A stretch of DNA of 64,000 nt from Candidatus Cloacimonadota bacterium. Its GTDB lineage: Bacteria > Cloacimonadota > Cloacimonadia > Cloacimonadales > Cloacimonadaceae. The stretch is from positions 335 to 64,334 of the forward strand of contig JAQVIX010000006.1 in assembly GCA_028695495.1 (NCBI GenBank). The letters run 5' to 3'. Position numbers and translations under genes: made by a program. Position 1 is the first letter of the stretch. Every line of letters begins with the position of its first letter. This document shows positions 10,398 through 23,523 of this stretch, one piece after another. Under the pieces are notes generated by a model. The model was not told the origin of the DNA. It worked only from the letters and a program-made list of their open reading frames with translations, and made no database searches.

Positions 10398-11456
10398 ATG
10401 AACTCCTCTGAAAAAGAATTACGTTTGATCCGAATGCTGCTTACCATTATCGCGGTACCGATGGTGGTGATGATCTTTCGCACGCTCAAAGCCATCTTCA
10501 TTCCGCTGATGCTTGCCACATTCCTCAGCTTTGTATTTGCGCCGCTAAATGGCTGGTTGCGCAAGAAAAAGGTGCATATCAGCCTGGTAATGCTGATCAT
10601 GCTTATCATCATCAGCCTCCTGATGGTGGGAGCTTTTATGTTGCTAAATGCGGCTGCCGGCAGCTTGATCAGTGGCTTCCCCCGCTATCAATACCGGCTG
10701 GTATTGGAGCTGCAAAATTGGATTGAGTTCTTTGAAAACTGGAATATCAAGCTTGCTTCCGCTACCTCCTCTTTGCCCAAAATGGATATTTCGCGCCTGC
10801 TCTCGCCCGGTTCCTTTTCACTTTCCAAAACCCTTTCCAATGTAATGAGCACCACGGTGGGGATTGGCTGGAACTTCATTTTGATCATCATCTTTCTGAT
10901 GTTTATCGTGGCGCAGGATGGGCGGCTTAGCGAGCGGTTGGCGGCAGTATTGAAGGAAGAAGACCGTATTAAAACCACCAAAACACTACATAATATACAG
11001 GTGCAGATTCAGCGCTATCTGCTTACCAAAACCGTGATTAGCCTGCTTACGGCGATAGTGGGAATGGTATTTATGGCGCTTTATGGGGTAGATTTTATCC
11101 TGGTATGCGGCATCTTGCTATTTGTGCTAAACTTTATCCCCAATATCGGCAGCATTATCGCCAGCGGCATTCCTATCCTCATCTGCTTCTTGCAAGGCGG
11201 CTTGGATTGGCGCACAATTACCTTTTCGATGTGCATTATCGGTACGCAAATGCTCTTTGGCAATATCATCGAGCCGCAGATTCAGGGGGAAAGGCTCGAC
11301 CTCAGCCCCATCATGGTGTTGGTATCCCTCATCTTTTGGGGCTGGGTATGGGGAATAGTGGGTATGCTTTTGGCGGTGCCCATTACCTCCGCTATCAATA
11401 TCATGCTGAAGCAGATCAATGAAAAGAACCTGATTTCGGCGATTATCAGCGCATAG
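10398..11456 (+). CDS. AI-2E family transporter (PerM/UPF0118-like permease)
   Basis: 352 aa, multi-TM. FIPNIGSIIASGIPILI and LLAVPIT segments resemble the family consensus as I recall it. Confidence 0.75.
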   Translation: MNSSEKELRLIRMLLTIIAVPMVVMIFRTLKAIFIPLMLATFLSFVFAPLNGWLRKKKVHISLVMLIMLIIISLLMVGAFMLLNAAAGSLISGFPRYQYRLVLELQNWIEFFENWNIKLASATSSLPKMDISRLLSPGSFSLSKTLSNVMSTTVGIGWNFILIIIFLMFIVAQDGRLSERLAAVLKEEDRIKTTKTLHNIQVQIQRYLLTKTVISLLTAIVGMVFMALYGVDFILVCGILLFVLNFIPNIGSIIASGIPILICFLQGGLDWRTITFSMCIIGTQMLFGNIIEPQIQGERLDLSPIMVLVSLIFWGWVWGIVGMLLAVPITSAINIMLKQINEKNLISAIISA

Positions 11457-11726: not shown

Positions 11727-12653
11727 TCAAGAAACATTATTTTCCTGTGCACTTTTAGGCGTTTTATTTATTGATTTTTCATAGACATAAGATGGTGTTT
11801 TGAGCTTCAGGCTTAAGTGTGGTCTTACGTCATTGTACAAGCGAATACTATCTTTGGTGATTAGCCGGACAGCATTAGTATTAGGGAAACTGACATCCAG
11901 TCCAAATTCCGTCTTCAAAATGCCATTGATCCTTTCTGCAACAGCATTATCAAAGCATTTGTCTGGACCGGTCATACTGATTTCTGCGCCGTGGTCTTTC
12001 AAGATAGCGACATAGTTTTTACAGCAATACTGTACACCATGATCGGAATGATGAATGAAACCAGGTTCAGGCTTAGCATATTTTAGGGCTTTTTGCAAGG
12101 CATCTTCTGCCCCTTCGGCGTTAAGGCTCGATCTTACCGCATATCCAAGCACTTTTCGGCTATACAAATCTGAGACAAGAAACAGGTAGCAAAACTTGCT
12201 TTCTGCGAGTCTAATATAAGTTATATCACTTACCCACACCTGATTAGCGCGCTCTGGTACCAGACCTTTGATTAAAAAAGGATAAACTGGCAGATCAGGT
12301 GCCGAAATTGACGTGTTTTTTCGACGTTTATACAATCTGGATTGCAAATTGTACTTCCTCAGAATGGCAAATAGCCGGTCACGACCAACAATTATGGGTA
12401 ATCCATAAGCTGGATCGGCAAGCATAGCTTGAAGCTTAAGACCTCCCAATGTTGGTAGGATTTTACGAATCTCTAATATCCGCATGACCACGATATTCTC
12501 CAATTCTAGCCTTTTTTCAAGCGCTATTTCGCGTTTGTACTTGGCTTGTTTGCTGATTCCATAGATTTTGCAGAACCTGTCGATGCTGAATTTGACTCCT
12601 CGCCGTAAAGCTTTCTCTTTGCTTCTAACAAGGCTTGGCTCCAGGGCTTTTTT
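11727..12653 (-). CDS. IS3-family transposase OrfB (rve/DDE integrase core), expressed only as an OrfAB fusion by recoding
   Basis: The frame is open from the TAA at 12654-12656. It translates KKALEPSLVRSKEKALRRGVKFSIDRFCKIYGISKQAKYKRE..., then WVSDITYI and HHSDHGVQY (DDE core). It is in the +1 frame relative to orfA as sequenced. Confidence 0.8.
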   Translation of the reverse strand, partial: KKALEPSLVRSKEKALRRGVKFSIDRFCKIYGISKQAKYKREIALEKRLELENIVVMRILEIRKILPTLGGLKLQAMLADPAYGLPIIVGRDRLFAILRKYNLQSRLYKRRKNTSISAPDLPVYPFLIKGLVPERANQVWVSDITYIRLAESKFCYLFLVSDLYSRKVLGYAVRSSLNAEGAEDALQKALKYAKPEPGFIHHSDHGVQYCCKNYVAILKDHGAEISMTGPDKCFDNAVAERINGILKTEFGLDVSFPNTNAVRLITKDSIRLYNDVRPHLSLKLKTPSYVYEKSINKTPKSAQENNVS

Positions 12654-12987
12654 TTATTGGTATTCCCAGCTCTTGCTCGGCTGATTCTACCATACTTTCC
12701 CACGCAATAGCGCGACATTCGGCTTCCTCCAATTGCTTTTTGAGCAAAGCTAATTCTCTTCGGAGGGTGATTAGCTCGGTTTCTTCGTACTTGGTCATGA
12801 TTACCACCTTTTTTCCTTTTTCTGCATTCATTCCATATATAGATAACCACCTATATACGGTCTCATTACCGCTAATGCCATAATATTTGGCTGCTTGATT
12901 TGCTGTCATAATACCGCATTCAATTTCGTTCACAACTGAACGCTTGAAAGCTTCACTATAGACTAGATTTGGTCTCTTTTTTTGCAT
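12625..12987 (-). CDS. IS3-family transposase OrfA (HTH DNA-binding, leucine-zipper-like C-terminus)
   Basis: 120 aa. YSEAFKRSVVNEIECGIMTANQAAKYYGISGNETVYRWL is a typical IS3 OrfA HTH. It ends just after the A8G run at 12648-12655. Confidence 0.85.
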   Translation of the reverse strand: MQKKRPNLVYSEAFKRSVVNEIECGIMTANQAAKYYGISGNETVYRWLSIYGMNAEKGKKVVIMTKYEETELITLRRELALLKKQLEEAECRAIAWESMVESAEQELGIPIKKSPGAKPC

Positions 12988-13300: not shown

Positions 13301-14431
13301 TTAGTGCTTTTTGTGTTTTTTATTGATCGCCTTGGCGCGGTAGGTAAAAGCTTTTTCGGCAGGCAGGCTAAAGAGCATAGCGCGGGATTCATCTTCAAAG
13401 CAGGAAGTGGCTTCCAAAGCCTGGGTAATGGCTTCCACGCGCGCTGTGGGCACGATCATCTTGCAAATCTCGCGGGTATAGCGCTTTAGTTCCAGATTTT
13501 CATCCAGCTCCAGCATGCGCAATTTGCAGATCGTGGCGCCGGGGGCACCGCTGCTCATGGCGGCTTCCATTAGAGTAATGCCTTCAGCTTCTGCGCATAT
13601 GAGATTTAGCTCTGTAAGATCATGCAGATAGTCCCGAATCTTGGTGCCTTCCAGTTCCAGACTGGATTTGCGCCATTCCATACCGCCATTGATATTATCG
13701 ATAGCAGAAACCATCTGCTCGATGCTGGCGGCTTGGGCAATGCGCGAGCGGGATATCTTGGTATTTACAATGCCTTGCTTGATGGGAAACATATAGGCGA
13801 TGCCGCGACCGGGTTCATCCAGCTTGCCCACTTCGATATAAAGCTCCATTACGGATTGAGCGTCGTGTTTGCTAAGCACCAGATTCACCAATTCCTTTTC
13901 CGGCGGGATGGTGATGCGGAGCAAGCCCAGTTTGTCTCGCACACCGGAACCTTCGCCATGGGTGGTGGCGGGAACGCTGGCGCCGTAATTCAGGGCAATG
14001 CGGGAGATCTTATCACCTTCTCCGCGCTGCACGATGCACACAATGCCCATAAGCTGGTGAAAGAAGTTTTCGGATACCTGTTTTTGAAAGTGGATATTGC
14101 GGTTTACGTGGTAGCTACTATGCTGCTGCTCTATCGTCATATCATAGCTATAGATGCTACCCTTACCGGGGGTTTTGAGGTCGTATTTTTTGGCGATATA
14201 GCTTAGTATGCTGTGTTCAAATACTTCGTCCACGATTACGCTAAGGATTTCCACCTGGTAAGAAACCAGGCCTCTTAGCCCAAAGATACTGGGGAGATTG
14301 GAGTTTTCTCCCAAAACGGAGGAGCGTCCCATCTCGATAAAGAATTGCTTTACTCCCATGGCGATGAGATCATCCATGATGGACTTGGTAAGGTCTTTGT
14401 GGACGATGATGCTGATTCTTACGGCTTTCAT
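13301..14431 (-). CDS. Single-chain protein with three tandem PII-like (GlnB-fold) modules
   Basis: 376 aa. Three ~95-110-aa segments show a beta-alpha-beta-beta-alpha-beta pattern (MKAVRISIIVHKD..., LMGIVCIVQRGEGD...THGEGSGVRD...GRGIAYMFPI, LTELNLICAEAEG...). The start overlaps the upstream stop (ATGA). Confidence 0.65.
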   Translation of the reverse strand: MKAVRISIIVHKDLTKSIMDDLIAMGVKQFFIEMGRSSVLGENSNLPSIFGLRGLVSYQVEILSVIVDEVFEHSILSYIAKKYDLKTPGKGSIYSYDMTIEQQHSSYHVNRNIHFQKQVSENFFHQLMGIVCIVQRGEGDKISRIALNYGASVPATTHGEGSGVRDKLGLLRITIPPEKELVNLVLSKHDAQSVMELYIEVGKLDEPGRGIAYMFPIKQGIVNTKISRSRIAQAASIEQMVSAIDNINGGMEWRKSSLELEGTKIRDYLHDLTELNLICAEAEGITLMEAAMSSGAPGATICKLRMLELDENLELKRYTREICKMIVPTARVEAITQALEATSCFEDESRAMLFSLPAEKAFTYRAKAINKKHKKH

Positions 14432-16572
14432 AAGCTTGCCTCCTCAGTAGCGGCGGCAATTTCCAGATTTTCCTTAGGCGCTTCCTGTATCAAAGCTCTA
14501 CGGCGGTAATTTACCACCAGCCCCATGGAAAGAACCGAGATAATGGGACATACCGAAGCGGTGGCGAGGATGCCAAACCCTTGTTCCACACCCACCTGGC
14601 TGCCAATTCCCAAACCCATGGAGAGTACCAGCGGTACCGTGATAGGCCCCGTGGTTACCCCCGCACTATCCCAGCCAATGCTTACAAATTCCTCGGTGCT
14701 AAACTTCGTAATGAAAAAGAGGACAAGGTAGAGGGGGCATAAGAGCCAGAATAGCGGGATATTCCAGATAATCTGCGTGATGCCCAGCGAGATGCCGGTG
14801 CCCACTCCGATGGCTACCGCCTGAATAAGCGAGCTTTTGCGGAAGGCACCCACCGTTACATCTTCCACGGTAAGCCCCAGGGCGTTTAGCGCCGGCTCTG
14901 CCAGGGTGGCGGTATAGCCTAGGATAAAGGCAAATACCAATACCACCAGGATGCCCAGCGCACTATATGCTCCGCGCCCAAAGAGTGGACCGCGCATCGG
15001 AATATGGCGGTAAAGCTTTTGGCTATCATCGTAATTGTGCGCTTCAAACTGCACCGGGCTAATCTTGCCGGCTTCCTCTTCAAAATAGAAAAACTCATTG
15101 CTGCTGCCGTCCGGACGCACATAGTTATACACATTATCCAGGCTGAAATCCTTGATAATCTTCTGCTGGCTGGTGTTTTGCATTTGCGCAAAGGATACCG
15201 GCAGGTTCGAGCCTACCTGATCCCCAATGCGGGAAAGCCCCAGCTCGATGCCGCCGCCAAAGAGCGCCATTCCGATAACGGCAAATACCAGCCCCAGATA
15301 TACTTCGTCTGGGCGCCCCAGGCTCTCGCGGAGCACTATATACAAGATGCCCAATAGGAAGAGCGAGAGCGGAACGATGGCGCGCAAGGCTGCCAAGAGG
15401 TTCTTCAGGCTGTAATCCCGGATATTCATATCTTCCAAGCCGCCTTCGCCATTCTTGCCGGTGGAGCTATCGATCAAAAGCATCTCGGCAAATTGCTCTT
15501 TTAGCTCTTGATTGCCGTTTTGGATAAGCCAGGTGCGGAAATGGTCTTTGCTCCCAAATACCCTGCGGATATTGGCAGGCTCTTTGCCCAATTCGGATAC
15601 ATGCGCCATCAGGGCTGCTTTATCGTTATCAAATGCCTTCAGCTGCGCCTGGAAGCTGGCTTTTCCCAAGGCGTATTCCTGCATTTCTTCATTGCTATGA
15701 AAGAGATGCTGCGCTTTGCTATTTTGAGAATCGAAAAACTTTACATCACTGGTAGGATTTGGCACTACGTGGTTAACCAGCAAACCTAAAACCAAAACGG
15801 CGATTACCGGCACCAAAGATGCCATGGTTACCACGCCAAAGCCGCCCTCAACAGAACTTGCTCCCTTATTTGCCACGTGGCTAATGCCAATACCCAAAGC
15901 CAATACCAAAGGTACGGTGACGGGTCCCGTTGTAACGCCCCCGCTATCCCATGCCAAGCCTAGGATATGTTGCAAATTGGGATGGAAAGAGGAGTACAAA
16001 GAGAGAGCTAAAAGAATGCTAACTAATACATAGATAAAGGGCTTGAGCGACCAACCCTTGAAAAAGCGGAACATACTGAGGATAAGCGCACCGCCTACCC
16101 CTATGGCAATAGCGGCTACCAGATACACCGAGTATTTGTTTAATAGCAAAAAGAGTAGCGGCGCTTTCCAGGCAAGCACACTGCTGCCCGCTACTTTTAG
16201 TACCCCAATGGCGGGTTCGGCAAAGGTGGCTACCACGCCCAAGATAAAGCCAATAAAGAGGATGCTGCCAAACTTTGCCCGCTGCGGCAGGCGGATGCCA
16301 ATCTCCTCGCCCATGGGCATAATCCCCAAAAGCAGCCCTTCCATAAAGAAACTCAAACCCAAGATCACCATTACCAGCCCCATTCCAATCACCGAAGCAT
16401 GCAGTATCGGAATCCCTAAGATAATGGTTTGGAACAAGATCAGATAGATAATGATGCCGGATACGGATTTTATCTGCTCCAATACCTTAATCTTGATGTA
16501 GCGCAAGATCATCTTGAGGGCTTCTTCGCTACTCACCTTAAAGCGCGGACTTTCCGCTTTTTTTCGTTTCAT
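14428..16572 (-). CDS. Fused double DUF1538-domain integral membrane protein (putative transporter)
   Basis: 714 aa and highly hydrophobic. Two homologous halves each carry WDSGGVTTGPVTVPLVLALGIG / WDSAGVTTGPITVPLVLSMGLG. Hydrophilic inserts lie between and within the halves. Confidence 0.7.
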   Translation of the reverse strand: MKRKKAESPRFKVSSEEALKMILRYIKIKVLEQIKSVSGIIIYLILFQTIILGIPILHASVIGMGLVMVILGLSFFMEGLLLGIMPMGEEIGIRLPQRAKFGSILFIGFILGVVATFAEPAIGVLKVAGSSVLAWKAPLLFLLLNKYSVYLVAAIAIGVGGALILSMFRFFKGWSLKPFIYVLVSILLALSLYSSFHPNLQHILGLAWDSGGVTTGPVTVPLVLALGIGISHVANKGASSVEGGFGVVTMASLVPVIAVLVLGLLVNHVVPNPTSDVKFFDSQNSKAQHLFHSNEEMQEYALGKASFQAQLKAFDNDKAALMAHVSELGKEPANIRRVFGSKDHFRTWLIQNGNQELKEQFAEMLLIDSSTGKNGEGGLEDMNIRDYSLKNLLAALRAIVPLSLFLLGILYIVLRESLGRPDEVYLGLVFAVIGMALFGGGIELGLSRIGDQVGSNLPVSFAQMQNTSQQKIIKDFSLDNVYNYVRPDGSSNEFFYFEEEAGKISPVQFEAHNYDDSQKLYRHIPMRGPLFGRGAYSALGILVVLVFAFILGYTATLAEPALNALGLTVEDVTVGAFRKSSLIQAVAIGVGTGISLGITQIIWNIPLFWLLCPLYLVLFFITKFSTEEFVSIGWDSAGVTTGPITVPLVLSMGLGIGSQVGVEQGFGILATASVCPIISVLSMGLVVNYRRRALIQEAPKENLEIAAATEEASL

Positions 16573-16647: not shown

Positions 16648-17226
16648 TTACCCTATTATCAAATACAAGATCATGTTCATTACGCCCACGATGAAATTCA
16701 GCGCAATGATGAAGTACATTAAATATTTATGAACGTATAGGTTATAGTATCTTAGGAAGAAATCAATGCTAAACTGGAAGTCATAATCGTCAATACGGTG
16801 TTCCACCCTGTATTGCTCCAAAAGCCGGGGCACGGTTCTTCTTAGGAATTTCGATGCCACTCCGGTAAAGGAATCGGCTATCATATCCCGTATTTTGAGC
16901 TTCATCTTGGCGGTAAGGAAAAGCCAGCCATCTACAAACTCACTCTTTTCCCAGATGAAATTGCGGATCATGCCTTCCCATTTCTTTAGGTAGCCATCGC
17001 TCAGCTTGGGGTTTTCGGCTTGGCGCAGGTAGTCGTGCAAGAGGTCGCGCACTTTTACAAAAAGCCATTCACGCTTGCGCACCAAAAAGCCGGGGGTTAA
17101 AATGCAGCGCTTGCCAAAGAAATAGCGCGCTTTGCCATTGAACAAGAACCATCTGAGGAAATAGACCAAGCCCATGCCCAGCACTATGTTCCACACGATA
17201 AACAGTAATGATTTTAAAAATAACAT
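16648..17226 (-). CDS. Membrane protein of unknown function
   Basis: I start it at the internal ATG (MLFLKSLLFIVWNIV...), 1 nt after the TPM gene stop. The longer 255-aa ORF would overlap the Gly-rich tail of the upstream gene. TM helices at both ends. Confidence 0.55.
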   Translation of the reverse strand: MLFLKSLLFIVWNIVLGMGLVYFLRWFLFNGKARYFFGKRCILTPGFLVRKREWLFVKVRDLLHDYLRQAENPKLSDGYLKKWEGMIRNFIWEKSEFVDGWLFLTAKMKLKIRDMIADSFTGVASKFLRRTVPRLLEQYRVEHRIDDYDFQFSIDFFLRYYNLYVHKYLMYFIIALNFIVGVMNMILYLIIG

Positions 17227-17227
17227 T

Positions 17228-18046
17228 CTAAAAACCTCCTCTGGCTCCACCGCCGCCGGAGCGTCCGCCACCGGTGCCACCAAATCCACCAAAACCACCA
17301 CCACTACTTTTGCCACCGGAAGAGCCGCCTGAAGAGCCTCCGCCCGTCCAGGGGCCGCCGCCTGTCCAGGGACCGCCACCACTGAAGGGACCTCTTGGAC
17401 CGCCACCTCTACCACCAGTCCAGAAGAACCAACCCAAGAGATTTCCGCGCGTCCACAAAATGAATACTACCAGCAAAATGATGATAACTATCACCTTGGA
17501 TGGTATCCTACTGGAGCCTTGCCTTTGCGACCAATCTGATGTGCCGGTAAGCGTTACGCCTTTTTCGAGGGCAACCTTTTCCAGCAGATAAAGGGCTCCT
17601 TGGGTAAAAGCCATATCCCAATCTTCACTGCCTTTAGCCAGATAGCGCTTCATATCCTCGCGCAGCTGGCTGGCAAAGGCATCGGTAATATAGCCTTCAC
17701 AGCCATAGCCCACCTCAATCCCCAGGCGCCGCTCTTTCAAAGCGAGCCAGATCAGTACGCCTTCGTCTTGCTTGGAGCCTATCTTCCAGCTTTGGTATAT
17801 CCTATCCCCAAAGAGCAGGTCGTCTTCTCCCCCATTCTCTTTGAAGGTGGCGATCATAAAGTCAACATCCGTCTTTTCACGCAGTTCAATCGCCCAGTCG
17901 TTAATCCTGTTTCTGGCATCTTCGCTGAGGAGCTTGGCAAAGTCGTTCACAAAGCCTTCCGGCTCTGGTATCTGGAGCTCCTTTGCCATCAGCAGGCTGC
18001 CCAATATCAGCAGCAAAATGCAGAGATATAGCGATTTATACTTCAT
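17228..18046 (-). CDS. TPM-domain (YgcG-like) protein with TM helix and glycine-rich C-terminal tail
   Basis: 272 aa. Signal peptide. [36 protein letters not shown] is a typical TPM domain. TM segment [11 protein letters not shown]. Tail [31 protein letters not shown]... Confidence 0.8.
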
Positions 18047-21029: not shown

Positions 21030-21728
21030 CTACTTTTGGGTGAGTTCGTGGATCAATCTATCCACCTTGGCTTGGGGTCCCATCATAATCAGCACATCGC
21101 CTTCATTTACGATGTCGCTGGCGCCGGGCATATCGTTTACCTTCTTTTCCACCACGTTGCGCCCATCCTCGGTTACAGAAAAGCTATCGCTCTTAATGGC
21201 AATGATATTCACGCCCTTTTCCGAGGGCAACGCCAGCTCCTGCAATTCTTTACCGATATAAGAGCGCGGTGCCAGCATTTCCATCACCACGTGCCCGCTA
21301 CTAAGGCTGATGTATTCGCGCACGTTTTTGGAGATCAGAGTTTTAGCAAGCTGGGTGCCCACTATTTCTTCGGGCAAAAGGATGTGTTGCACGCCGATAA
21401 GCTCCAGGATGCGCCCATGCAGGCGGTTTTCCACCTTGGCGTAGATAATGCCCACGCCTATCTTGCGCAGGATGGCGGCAGTTAAGATGCTTTCCTGGAT
21501 GTTGCTGCCAATGGCGAGGATTACGGCATCTGCCTCGTTCAGATTTAGCAAGCGCAAAGCTGCTTCATCTGTGGCGTCCATGCAGATGGCAGAGCTTACC
21601 CGCGAGGAGATTTCATCTACCAGTTCCTGTTTCTTTTCGATGGCGATTACTTCCATACCACTATCGAAGAGGATGTTTGCCACCGTTGTGCCAAATCTGC
21701 CCAATCCTATTACCGCGTATCTTGCCAT
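21030..21728 (-). CDS. trkA: K+ transport NAD-binding regulatory subunit (TrkA/KtrA, RCK N+C domains)
   Basis: 232 aa. VIGLGRFGTTVA Rossmann motif and a TrkA-C-like C-terminus. Adjacent to trkH. Confidence 0.88.
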   Translation of the reverse strand: MARYAVIGLGRFGTTVANILFDSGMEVIAIEKKQELVDEISSRVSSAICMDATDEAALRLLNLNEADAVILAIGSNIQESILTAAILRKIGVGIIYAKVENRLHGRILELIGVQHILLPEEIVGTQLAKTLISKNVREYISLSSGHVVMEMLAPRSYIGKELQELALPSEKGVNIIAIKSDSFSVTEDGRNVVEKKVNDMPGASDIVNEGDVLIMMGPQAKVDRLIHELTQK

Positions 21729-21738
21729 AATTCTCTCC

Positions 21739-23523
21739 TTAGCCGATCATTACTTTTTCTTCGGCAAAACTAAGCCGGGGTTGCACTTTGCGCATGGATA
21801 GAGCATAGATCATAGTAAGAGGTCCAATGCGCCCGATATACATGAGTAAGATGATAATAAGCTTGCCCAGATTGCTGAGGTAAGGCGTAATGCCCATGCT
21901 CAGCCCGCAGGTGCTAAATGCGGATATCGCCTCAAACGCCACTGTGCTAAAGGTTTTTTGCTCGATTAGAAGCAGGAAAAAGGTGCTGATAAGCAGGATG
22001 AAGGTAATAAGGCTGAGCAGCGCCACCGCCTCCCGCAGATTGGACATCGGGATTTTGCGATTGAATACCGTAAGTTCCCGCCGTCCGCGAAGGATTGAGA
22101 TTACCGAGATTACGAGCAACGCCAAAGTAGTGGTTTTCATGCCCCCGCCGGTAGAACCGGGAGAAGCGCCTACAAACATCAAAGCCTGGCAAGTAAGCAC
22201 CGTAGCCGGGCTGATATGCTCGAAAGCGATGGTATCGAAGCCTGCCGTGCGGCTGGAGACGGATTGAAACCAGGAGCTAAAAAGCCGCTTATCCAAGTCA
22301 AAGCCCGCCATGGTATTATTATATTCCGCCCAAAAGAAACCCAGAAAACCCACTAAAAGCAAAGCCGCAGTGGTGCTAAGCACGATCTTGCTATGCAGTG
22401 ATAGCTGATGATTATTCCGGCTAAAAAAGCGGTGATAAAGATCGATAATTACAGCAAATCCCACTCCACCCAGAATGATGAGCAAGGTAATGACAATATT
22501 TAAAAGAGGCGCTTCCACATAGTGAGTAAGCGAATCCGTAAAGAGCGAAAAGCCGGCATTGCAAAAGGCAGATACCGAGTGAAAGATGGAGTGATAGATC
22601 GCCTGCGCCGGACTCATCTCCTGCGAGAAAACAAAGAAGAGCAGTGTAGCCCCCACCAGCTCGATGATGACGGTAACCAAAACCACGCTTTTAAGAAGCT
22701 GAAAGATATCCAGCCGCCGGTCTTTACCCATTACCGAATACATGATATTTTCCAGCTTGAGGGTAAGCCGTTGCCCCATAATGAGCGCAAAAGCGGTGGA
22801 GATGGTCATAATCCCCAGCCCGCCAATTTGGATGAGAAGCAACACCACAAGCTGCCCCATCAGTGTAAGCGTGGAACCGATATCAAATACCGATAGACCG
22901 GTTACGCAGGTGGCAGAAGTAGCAATAAACAGCGCATCTATGGGGGCGGTAACGCGATGCAACACCGATGCTGAAGGCAGCATCAAAAGCACTGTGCCTA
23001 CAAAGATTACCAAAGCGAAGCTCAGCATCAGGCTCACTGGCGGATTATCCGAAAGTAGCTTGAATAGCTTTCCTTCCATCGCCCGAAAGAGCAGATATTG
23101 CAAAAAGAAATAGGTTTGACGGATAAGTAGAAGAAAGATCAGGATTTTGGGCTGGAAAAAGAGCAAAATCACCCCTGGGATAAAGAGCACGAGGTCAAAC
23201 ATCACGCGTTTATTATCCCTTAGCGCTTTCCCGCCCAAAAGGCGCGCCAGAGTGCTAAGCCCCAAAAAGAGCAGATTGGCAATTGCCGTATAGATTTCCA
23301 CCTGTTGATAGGGTGCATAGTAGCTGATGATGGTCTCAAAAAAGAGCACCAAAAAGCTCCACAAGGCGATAAGATATGCCAGCCTTTCGATATTGCGCAG
23401 GTATCTGCCCGGTAGCGCTTTAGCCAAACTATATATCTCCCCAGTAATCTGCCATAATAACCGCGTGAATCTCCTGAATCGAGCCTTCGGCAGAGATATT
23501 TTGCAGATAGCCCATGCGTTCAA
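21739..23523 (-). CDS. trkH: TrkH/KtrB-family K+ transporter with long N-terminal extension (start uncertain)
   Basis: 594-aa ORF. The TrkH-like core starts near LSFALVIFVGTVLLMLP. About 150 extra N-terminal residues carry additional hydrophobic helices. The ORF start overlaps the adk 3' end by 95 nt. Confidence 0.8.
   Translation of the reverse strand: MNAWAICKISLPKARFRRFTRLLWQITGEIYSLAKALPGRYLRNIERLAYLIALWSFLVLFFETIISYYAPYQQVEIYTAIANLLFLGLSTLARLLGGKALRDNKRVMFDLVLFIPGVILLFFQPKILIFLLLIRQTYFFLQYLLFRAMEGKLFKLLSDNPPVSLMLSFALVIFVGTVLLMLPSASVLHRVTAPIDALFIATSATCVTGLSVFDIGSTLTLMGQLVVLLLIQIGGLGIMTISTAFALIMGQRLTLKLENIMYSVMGKDRRLDIFQLLKSVVLVTVIIELVGATLLFFVFSQEMSPAQAIYHSIFHSVSAFCNAGFSLFTDSLTHYVEAPLLNIVITLLIILGGVGFAVIIDLYHRFFSRNNHQLSLHSKIVLSTTAALLLVGFLGFFWAEYNNTMAGFDLDKRLFSSWFQSVSSRTAGFDTIAFEHISPATVLTCQALMFVGASPGSTGGGMKTTTLALLVISVISILRGRRELTVFNRKIPMSNLREAVALLSLITFILLISTFFLLLIEQKTFSTVAFEAISAFSTCGLSMGITPYLSNLGKLIIILLMYIGRIGPLTMIYALSMRKVQPRLSFAEEKVMIG

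Follow-up and report, generated by a model that had tools for sequence, protein, structure and literature searches.

A coupled gene pair in Cloacimonadota encodes a fused double-DUF1538 transporter and a single-chain triple-PII protein: a candidate PII-regulated cation/proton antiporter

The stretch of DNA analysed here (hereafter the window) spans 64,000 nucleotides of a contig from a Candidatus Cloacimonadota bacterium (JAQVIX010000006.1, assembly GCA_028695495.1, positions 335 to 64,334) and contains, on the minus strand, two adjacent genes whose products suggest a membrane transporter with its own PII-type regulator. The first open reading frame (ORF), running from 16572 to 14428, encodes a 714-residue membrane protein composed of two DUF1538 halves, and the second, from 14431 to 13301, encodes a 376-residue protein with three PII-like modules. 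The ATG of the second ORF (14431-14429) overlaps the TGA of the first (14430-14428), and a Shine-Dalgarno sequence, GAGGAGG, lies at 14445-14439, within the 3' end of the transporter gene and 7 nt before the ATG (junction sequence ...GAGGAGGcaagcttATGA). Judged by its sequence, this junction is textbook translational coupling, and the same 4-nt stop/start overlap is the modal junction in related loci too. An earlier interpretation made without database searches (the sequence-only reading) had placed both minus-strand ORFs and the ATGA overlap at 14428-14431 exactly where they are found. The closest matches of both proteins, at 99-100% identity, come from a 'Candidatus Cloacimonetes' metagenome-assembled genome (MAG), which makes the host an uncultured member of the Cloacimonadota. 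The features of the locus, with the evidence for each, are as follows; AF2 denotes AlphaFold2 models and pLDDT their predicted local distance difference test score.

14428..16572, minus strand: single-chain double-DUF1538 transporter gene, 714 residues, with UmpA-like and UmpB-like halves (ORF, PF07556 twice, NCBIfam, AF2)
15910..15951, minus strand: signature 1, WDSGGVTTGPVTVP, residues 208-221, where the helix is broken and D209 is invariant (columns of 52 homologues and model)
15403..15753, minus strand: insert 1, residues ~274-390, a helical soluble domain between the DUF1538 halves (AF2 short helices at 276-365, pLDDT ~90)
14962..15204, minus strand: insert 2, residues ~457-537, a small beta domain in the loop between transmembrane helices TM2' and TM3' (AF2 strands at 471-523)
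14632..14673, minus strand: signature 2, WDSAGVTTGPITVP, residues 634-647, the second-half counterpart with invariant D635 (columns and half-to-half alignment)
14428..14445, minus strand: coupling junction, a Shine-Dalgarno sequence followed by the stop/start overlap at 14431-14428 (sequence)
13301..14431, minus strand: single-chain three-module PII-like gene, 376 residues (ORF, AF2, Foldseek matches to PII, GlnK and CPII)
14123..14431, minus strand: PII module M1, residues 1-103, with a variable T-loop at 41-54 and a retained PGxG B-loop
13769..14053, minus strand: PII module M2, residues 127-221, the orthodox module, which is co-linear with the one-module PII proteins that accompany split DUF1538 pairs
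13895..13957, minus strand: M2 T-loop, residues 159-179, GEGSGVRDKLGLLRITIPPEK, proposed as the gating element, with higher conservation than any other part of the protein
13664..13735, minus strand: core of the M2-M3 linker, residues 233-256, QAASIEQ..A.D...G...WR (conservation 0.72)
13343..13627, minus strand: PII module M3, residues 269-363, with a short variable T-loop and a degenerate B-loop
13242..13259, no strand assigned: GC-rich hairpin, 42 nt past the stop of the PII gene (terminator-like scan and sequence)

The first gene is firmly assigned to DUF1538. PF07556 (DUF1538) matches the 714-residue protein twice, once in each half (E=3.1e-106; score 353.8 bits, cutoff 22.6 bits), the two halves align with each other (local alignment score 300), and the signature WDS(G/A)GVTTGP(V/I)TVP occurs in each, as WDSGGVTTGPVTVPLVLALGIG in the N-terminal half and WDSAGVTTGPITVPLVLSMGLG in the C-terminal half; the internal duplication recognised in the sequence-only reading is thereby upheld. 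A full-length Pfam scan returned DUF1538 only, with no further family in the inserts. Among NCBIfam models, the N half is best matched by UmpA (NF041627, 192.3 bits) and the C half by UmpB (NF041628, 152.7 bits), giving an A-B order. The AF2 model, built with 52 homologues (pLDDT 82.2; predicted template modelling score, pTM, 0.81), contains two helical-bundle repeats whose helices are broken at the conserved AEPA and WDSGGVTTGP motifs, with the break in signature 1 at residues 213-219. Across the 52 homologues, W208, D209, G211, V213, T215, G216, P217, V218, T219, V220 and P221 are invariant in signature 1, as are W634, D635, A637, T640, T641, G642, P643, T645, V646 and P647 in signature 2. 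Three symmetric pairs of invariant or near-invariant acidic residues (E78/E443, E119/E559 and D209/D635) lie in predicted membrane helices, where they would fit cation or proton binding. Foldseek comparison of the whole model with the PDB gave nothing meaningful (best E=7e-3, TM-score ~0.15, root-mean-square deviation >30 Å, AcrB-type noise), and the DUF1538 fold therefore appears to have no solved representative.

Both hydrophilic inserts noted from the sequence exist and are slightly larger than first estimated, at about 115 residues (insert 1) and about 80 residues (insert 2) rather than ~100 and ~75. Insert 2 separates helices two and three of the second repeat and aligns half-to-half with the loop at 88-100, which joins TM2 to TM3 in the first repeat and bears R94, R98 and K100. 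Positive charge is also found at the N terminus (10 K/R in 32 residues) and at the C terminus (RRR). This positive-inside pattern, taken with the homology of the halves, would place both inserts in the cytoplasm, on the side of the PII protein. Searches of the insert 1 and insert 2 sequences against the PDB found no match for either.

The second gene is more divergent. Its product scores 18.7 bits with the Pfam P-II model (PF00543), under the cutoff of 25, and this sub-threshold match is its only one in Pfam; a scan of NCBIfam gave no match. Thus, of the two Pfam families expected from the sequence alone, DUF1538 is assigned and P-II formally fails. Four lines of evidence nevertheless establish the three PII-like modules that the sequence-only reading had proposed. 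First, the AF2 model, built with 50 homologues (pLDDT 83.0, pTM 0.82), contains three consecutive beta-alpha-beta-beta-alpha-beta units, each with a low-confidence loop at the position of the PII T-loop; the diagnostic elements of the PII fold (a ferredoxin-like unit in which the T-loop connects beta2 to beta3 and the B-loop precedes beta4) are found three times over. Second, single modules match PII chains in Foldseek with a probability of ~1.0 and target TM-scores of 0.6-0.7, the matches including the PII proteins of Arabidopsis, Mycobacterium and Synechococcus, the GlnK proteins of B. subtilis, M. jannaschii and C. glutamicum, CPII, and CutA; no solved chain spans all three modules. Third, the modules are related to each other by hhalign (M1-M2 96%, M2-M3 95%). 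Fourth, a profile of the 376-residue family matches C. glutamicum GlnK among PDB sequences (6yc6, E=3e-4).

Canonical GlnB and GlnK proteins carry the T-loop base GFGRQKG with Tyr51 (or Ser49), the B-loop TGxxGDGKIF, and residues that bind ATP, ADP and 2-oxoglutarate. The window protein departs from this pattern: its T-loop base reads GRSSVL in M1 and GEGSGVRDK in M2, PGxG B-loops are present as PG(K/R)G in M1 and M2 and lacking in M3, and the canonical effector-binding motifs are only partly recognisable. An E. coli GlnB query aligns to M1 alone (84%). Its fold, together with transitive homology, makes the protein a member of the PII superfamily; it is not a canonical GlnB or GlnK.

Conservation is concentrated in the central module. 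Across 50 family members the majority fraction in the T-loop is 0.89 for M2, 0.36 for M1 and 0.35 for M3, the latter two loops being the least conserved segments of the protein. The M2 T-loop follows the consensus GxGxGxRDKLGLLRITIPxEK, with G159, G161, G163, R165, G169, L170, T174 and K179 invariant, and its low pLDDT indicates that it is probably flexible. A second conserved element, the M2-M3 linker, has invariant A235, D245, W253 and R254 and near-invariant S236, E238, Q239 and G249, and includes a helix at 237-248 that is also modelled with low pLDDT. The pTM and the number of modules imply that the three units are packed in a fixed way against each other and suggest that they form a PII-like pseudo-trimer; the single-chain protein is not a homotrimer. 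In this arrangement the modules would correspond to the subunits of a PII trimer that have been fused and have then diverged, with M2 alone keeping the T-loop typical of DUF1538-associated PII proteins.

The two genes are partners well beyond the window, and the pattern as a whole is far beyond chance. Homologues of the triple-PII protein form 207 clusters at 90% identity and 266 clusters at 50% identity (E<=1e-30), nearly all of 365-395 residues, and relatives were found in 310 species genomes in a scan of one genome per species. Neighbourhoods were analysed for the 80 best loci, all from MAGs, which include Cloacimonadota (~22), Desulfobacterota and 'delta' lineages (~27), Spirochaetota/Leptospirales (7), Fibrobacterota (4) and Syntrophales (3), with single loci from Calditrichota, Elusimicrobia, Myxococcota and Bacteroidota. 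Among loci with at least 2.3 kb of upstream DNA, a fused double-DUF1538 gene of ~700 residues lies directly upstream on the same strand in 62 of 63. At the sole exception (L056, 2518-7116) the place of the DUF1538 gene is taken by that of a 1061-residue SNF2-type helicase, encoded on the opposite strand and followed by a Ser/Thr kinase-like gene; this locus may represent a rearrangement or an orphan PII gene. When ORFs flanking the 80 loci were clustered, the two module genes were recovered in 73 and 71 loci, and the next family in 8, all close relatives. The module is autonomous and self-contained, since only its own two genes are conserved among the flanking ORFs, which bears out the earlier description of a compact two-gene unit. 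Two Cloacimonadota MAGs carry paralogous copies, two in UBA5456 (L012/L021) and three in AS05jafATM_99 (L013/L022/L050), with 45-60% identity to the window protein, which hints at functional diversification inside one cell.

The pairing is also seen from the transporter side. A small sample of loci collected with DUF1538 proteins only as queries has an adjacent PII gene directly downstream in 11 of 11 cases, although several of the split pairs are interrelated and the sample is not fully independent. The gene linkage that characterises PII-gated transporter systems is thus present from both directions and across phyla; such conservation was a check proposed in the sequence-only reading.

Comparison of these loci shows that the partnership exists in three grades. 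In the first, separate A and B DUF1538 genes are followed by a PII protein of one module, 112-122 residues long in Methylocystis and Chelativorans, 108-111 residues with a PF00543 match in four metagenomic or genomic split pairs, and 115 residues in the second module of a Desulfobacterales MAG described below. In the second, found in Paraclostridium, Peptoclostridium, Vescimonas, Acetoanaerobium and Subdoligranulum, a DUF1538 fusion of ~500-517 residues is followed by a two-module PII protein of 217-240 residues. The third grade, represented by the window, combines a fusion of ~710 residues and its inserts with a three-module PII protein. The two transporter inserts occur in this grade only, insert 1 being missing from the ~500-residue fused homologues with two-module partners.

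The smaller partners link the window protein to recognised PII families. They share its gene order and tight junctions and belong to the same subfamily as M2, and they differ in having one or two modules, in clearing the Pfam P-II cutoff (32-66 bits) and in accompanying transporters that lack both inserts. M2 is their best-matching module (hhalign 95.6-97.6% against partners of split and ~500-residue fused DUF1538 proteins), aligning over its full length with only a two-column gap before the final two residues and end gaps. The T-loop motif GxGxG...(I/T)xPEKE is common to M2 and to the one- and two-module partners, and the partners' own profile matches PII and GlnK structures at 1e-8 to 1e-5. 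Among solved structures, the closest relative of this subfamily in sequence is PDB 9p1x_H (E=1.2e-8), a protein of 105 residues described as a 'P-II family nitrogen regulatory protein'; its T-loop is short, and the recent entry to which it belongs contains 12 such chains.

Two grades adjoin in the Desulfobacterales MAG (L060, 3803-11099), where a fused DUF1538 gene with its triple-PII gene neighbours a split UmpAB-like pair with its 115-residue single PII and a K+ channel carrying two RCK domains. This split pair, at 359 and 318 bits against UmpA and UmpB, is the nearest UmpAB relative seen, and it has a PII partner.

Literature searches found no paper on a link between DUF1538 and PII or on multi-module PII chains, no experimental study of the one- and two-module PII genes adjacent to DUF1538, and, as the sequence-only reading had supposed, no published function for the exact combination of DUF1538 with a triple-PII protein. 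Because annotation pipelines already call the genes next to DUF1538 'P-II family nitrogen regulator', the adjacency can be seen in databases, yet it has apparently drawn no comment. The only functional treatment of DUF1538 found is the UmpAB study, which never mentions PII (PMC5484666).

That study bears directly on the substrate. In Halomonas zhaodongensis, UmpAB consists of two separate DUF1538 subunits that form a membrane hetero-dimer; it is a Na+(Li+,K+)/H+ antiporter, as determined by complementation of E. coli KNabc and in everted vesicles (PMC5484666), and the statement in the sequence-only reading that DUF1538 has no experimentally defined substrate is consequently out of date. UmpAB resembles the window protein in its paired architecture, with both halves assigned to one Pfam family and A preceding B, and in the AEPA and (W/Y)DSGGVTT motifs, which are also present in the UmpAB-like split pair of L060. 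It differs in that its two subunits are separate, whereas the window protein is a single-chain pseudo-dimer with added soluble domains, and in having been studied without a PII partner.

The genomic context points in the same direction. RCK-domain K+ channels, KtrA-like RCK proteins and CPA2+RCK exchangers adjoin the module at 10 of the 80 loci, in several phyla, and further K+ channel or CPA2 neighbours occur beyond this set. One split module is flanked by a P-type cation ATPase and a Na+/H+ exchanger. In a model relating genome content to pH, DUF1538 is listed among the key features of pH adaptation together with TrkH, Kdp, K_trans and Mrp/Mnh (PMC13255231). Given the UmpAB precedent, the acidic pairs, the K+-related neighbours, the ATPase and exchanger neighbours and the pH listing, the 714-residue protein is most probably a monovalent-cation (Na+/K+/Li+)/proton antiporter.

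A different substrate within the same PII-regulated architecture, such as bicarbonate, ammonium, an organic acid, a divalent metal or a compatible solute, is unlikely but is the best-placed alternative, in which case the antiport by UmpAB would be incidental or confined to its own subfamily. The PII-gated transporters known so far move nitrogen or carbon nutrients, other DUF1538 loci adjoin GntP, ClC, CitMHS and amino-acid permease genes, the window halves lie far under the UmpA and UmpB equivalog cutoffs, and the DUF1538 fold has no solved relative to constrain its chemistry. However, the membrane motifs hold six conserved acidic residues and no conserved basic ones, which favours cations, and the sole experimental datum for the family is cation/H+ antiport (PMC5484666). 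The recurrent neighbours of the module are K+ channels, RCK proteins and CPA2 exchangers rather than genes of nitrogen or carbon assimilation, and no glnA, amtB or carboxysome genes lie nearby in the window.

A regulatory function for the second gene is suggested by comparison with systems in which PII proteins act on transporters. Signal transduction by PII proteins is very widespread, and the direct effect understood best is the plugging of the transporters AmtB and SbtA. The window module resembles GlnK-AmtB in that a PII-fold protein is encoded beside and co-transcribed with a transporter and bears a long flexible T-loop with a conserved Arg. Unlike that system, in which a GlnK homotrimer plugs a homotrimeric channel 3:3, it combines one chain and one conserved T-loop with a pseudo-dimeric transporter; in addition, AmtB belongs to a family unrelated to DUF1538, the window PII-like protein lies under the P-II hidden Markov model cutoff, and the transporter gene precedes the PII gene. 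SbtB, which regulates the cyanobacterial Na+/bicarbonate symporter SbtA by T-loop insertion under adenine-nucleotide control, is likewise a dedicated PII-like protein encoded directly downstream of its transporter. It differs in being a homotrimer with a C-terminal redox R-loop and in acting on a trimer of unrelated fold, and no SbtB chain is among the listed Foldseek or sequence matches of the window protein.

Together, these observations are best accommodated by a fused transporter of the DUF1538/UmpAB family that carries out cation/proton antiport and is regulated by a partner PII pseudo-trimer, a reading in which we have moderate confidence. The first gene would join A and B subunits into one pseudo-dimeric secondary transporter and add two soluble domains, and the second would supply its dedicated PII-superfamily regulator. 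A canonical PII homotrimer offers three identical T-loops to a three-fold target; here, the conservation of the M2 T-loop alone and the pseudo-two-fold target suggest a single asymmetric pseudo-trimer on each pseudo-dimeric transporter. One pseudo-trimer would dock on the cytoplasmic face of one transporter (1:1), with the inserts as a platform and M1, M3 and both inserts forming the docking surface. A small-molecule effector, possibly an adenine nucleotide or a second messenger, could bind in the clefts between modules and cause the Arg/Lys-bearing M2 T-loop (R165/K167) to be inserted or withdrawn, thereby blocking or opening the acidic ion pathway, by analogy with GlnK on AmtB and SbtB on SbtA. 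The sequence and structure data show the identities of the domains, the predicted folds, the conserved linkage and coupling of the genes and the uneven conservation of the T-loops, whereas physical interaction, stoichiometry, effector, gating, direction of regulation and substrate are all inferred in this scheme. UmpAB was active in E. coli from a clone that held one truncated ORF, an MFS gene and umpAB, without a PII gene (PMC5484666), which indicates that the transporter does not need a PII protein to function; this fits a regulatory role for the PII protein, one that is probably inhibitory.

Several points weigh against this reading. The regulator fails the P-II cutoff and its effector-binding motifs are incomplete, and its pseudo-trimeric packing is deduced from pTM and module count, not from coordinates. 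The transporter halves fall far short of the equivalog cutoffs of 490 for UmpA and 500 for UmpB, which makes the 714-residue protein a distant fused relative and not a UmpAB orthologue, so that the transfer of substrate spans a large distance, and the function of UmpAB itself rests on one paper. A homology search with the Methylocystis query returned only its relatives and no Halomonas-labelled entries, and a PII neighbour for Halomonas umpAB is thus not confirmed. Finally, RCK genes make up ~2% of the ORFs flanking the module, a figure that includes related genomes and has no measured background; in general, such genes account for roughly 0.1-0.2% of genes.

The gene arrangement could also be explained if the PII-like protein were a constitutive stability or assembly subunit, or a CutA-like binder of metals or cofactors, with the T-loop motif as a permanent interface. 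Translational coupling and the trends towards fusion suggest a fixed stoichiometry, the effector-binding motifs are degenerate with the B-loop of M3 lost, and CutA chains are among the Foldseek matches. This explanation is improbable, however: UmpAB is active from a clone with no PII gene, M1 and M2 keep PGxG, the M2 T-loop base retains the GxGxG sequence characteristic of PII proteins that bind nucleotides, the nearest PDB sequence relatives are genuine GlnK and GlnB rather than CutA, and the M2 T-loop is predicted to be flexible. Reverse signalling, in which DUF1538 acts as a membrane sensor or anchor that sequesters a PII-like protein with targets elsewhere, has a precedent in GlnK-AmtB-DraG and would make use of the free M1/M3 surfaces and the conserved linker motif, but it is very improbable given that no third gene is conserved beside the pair in 80 loci and that the joint fusion of the two partners over three steps points to a closed system of two components.

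A broader proposal extends the regulated-antiporter reading to the whole family and is put forward tentatively, as somewhat short of probable. The apparently universal partnership of DUF1538 with PII would constitute a third major class of PII-controlled transporter, in which both partners underwent stepwise co-fusion, ending in the first single-chain, symmetry-broken PII pseudo-trimer, whose one T-loop gates a cation/proton antiporter and connects PII signalling to K+, Na+ and pH homeostasis. M1 and M3 would then have taken on new roles as surfaces for docking or sensing, facing the two newly acquired cytoplasmic domains. If true, PII control would reach a structurally unsolved transporter family of thousands of sequence clusters (6752 matches), and its signalling would be linked with the homeostasis of cations and pH rather than with nitrogen or carbon supply. 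The triple-PII protein would likewise show how a three-fold regulator can be fitted in nature to a two-fold target, by fusing the trimer and keeping one functional T-loop. The sole functional work on DUF1538 would also be reframed, since UmpAB was studied without the regulator that probably accompanies the transporter. The two-gene system offers clear mutational targets, namely R165/K167 in the M2 T-loop, and E78, E119 and D209 with their second-half equivalents in the transporter.

The surroundings of the module in the window are conserved at most among close relatives. Between the module and the trkA/trkH genes (21030-23523), which are 4.5 kb upstream, there are genes for RibBA, a pseudouridine synthase, a TPM-domain protein and two unknowns. 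The sequence-only reading had placed the pair at the end of a long operon with trkA/trkH, but the genes of this same-strand run have unrelated housekeeping roles (RibBA, pseudouridine synthase, Adk, TrmD and others), none being conserved outside close relatives, and the trk link is rejected as a conserved feature because no third family occurs in more than 8 of the 80 loci. The thematic tie of the window trk genes to K+ transport may nonetheless not be accidental. Immediately upstream of the transporter gene, a 255-residue ORF (16648-17415, minus strand) probably has its true start at an internal Met (MLFLKSLLF...), as in the homologue at L002, giving a membrane protein of ~195 residues that has no Pfam match and is syntenic in Cloacimonadota only (7 loci). 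The extra N-terminal part of this ORF overlaps, in another frame, the Gly/Pro-rich tail of the TPM-domain protein (17228-18046, minus strand).

On the 3' side, the GC-rich hairpin is a possible end of the transcription unit, judging from its sequence and position; consensus scans for promoters and terminators around the gene pair gave counts at or below shuffled background and were uninformative. An IS3-type element lies ~310 nt beyond the PII gene (11727-12987, minus strand), comprising an rve-integrase ORF (11727-12503) and an upstream 120-residue ORF without a Pfam match (12625-12987) that is probably its OrfA part; its insertion may have displaced the original 3' neighbour of the module. 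Approximately 2 kb from the module, on the plus strand, is a permease of the AI-2E/UPF0118 family (10398-11456; PF01594, E=2e-54). According to one report, members of this family act as Na+(Li+)/H+ antiporters (PMC7221264), which makes this permease a second candidate cation/proton exchanger near the module.

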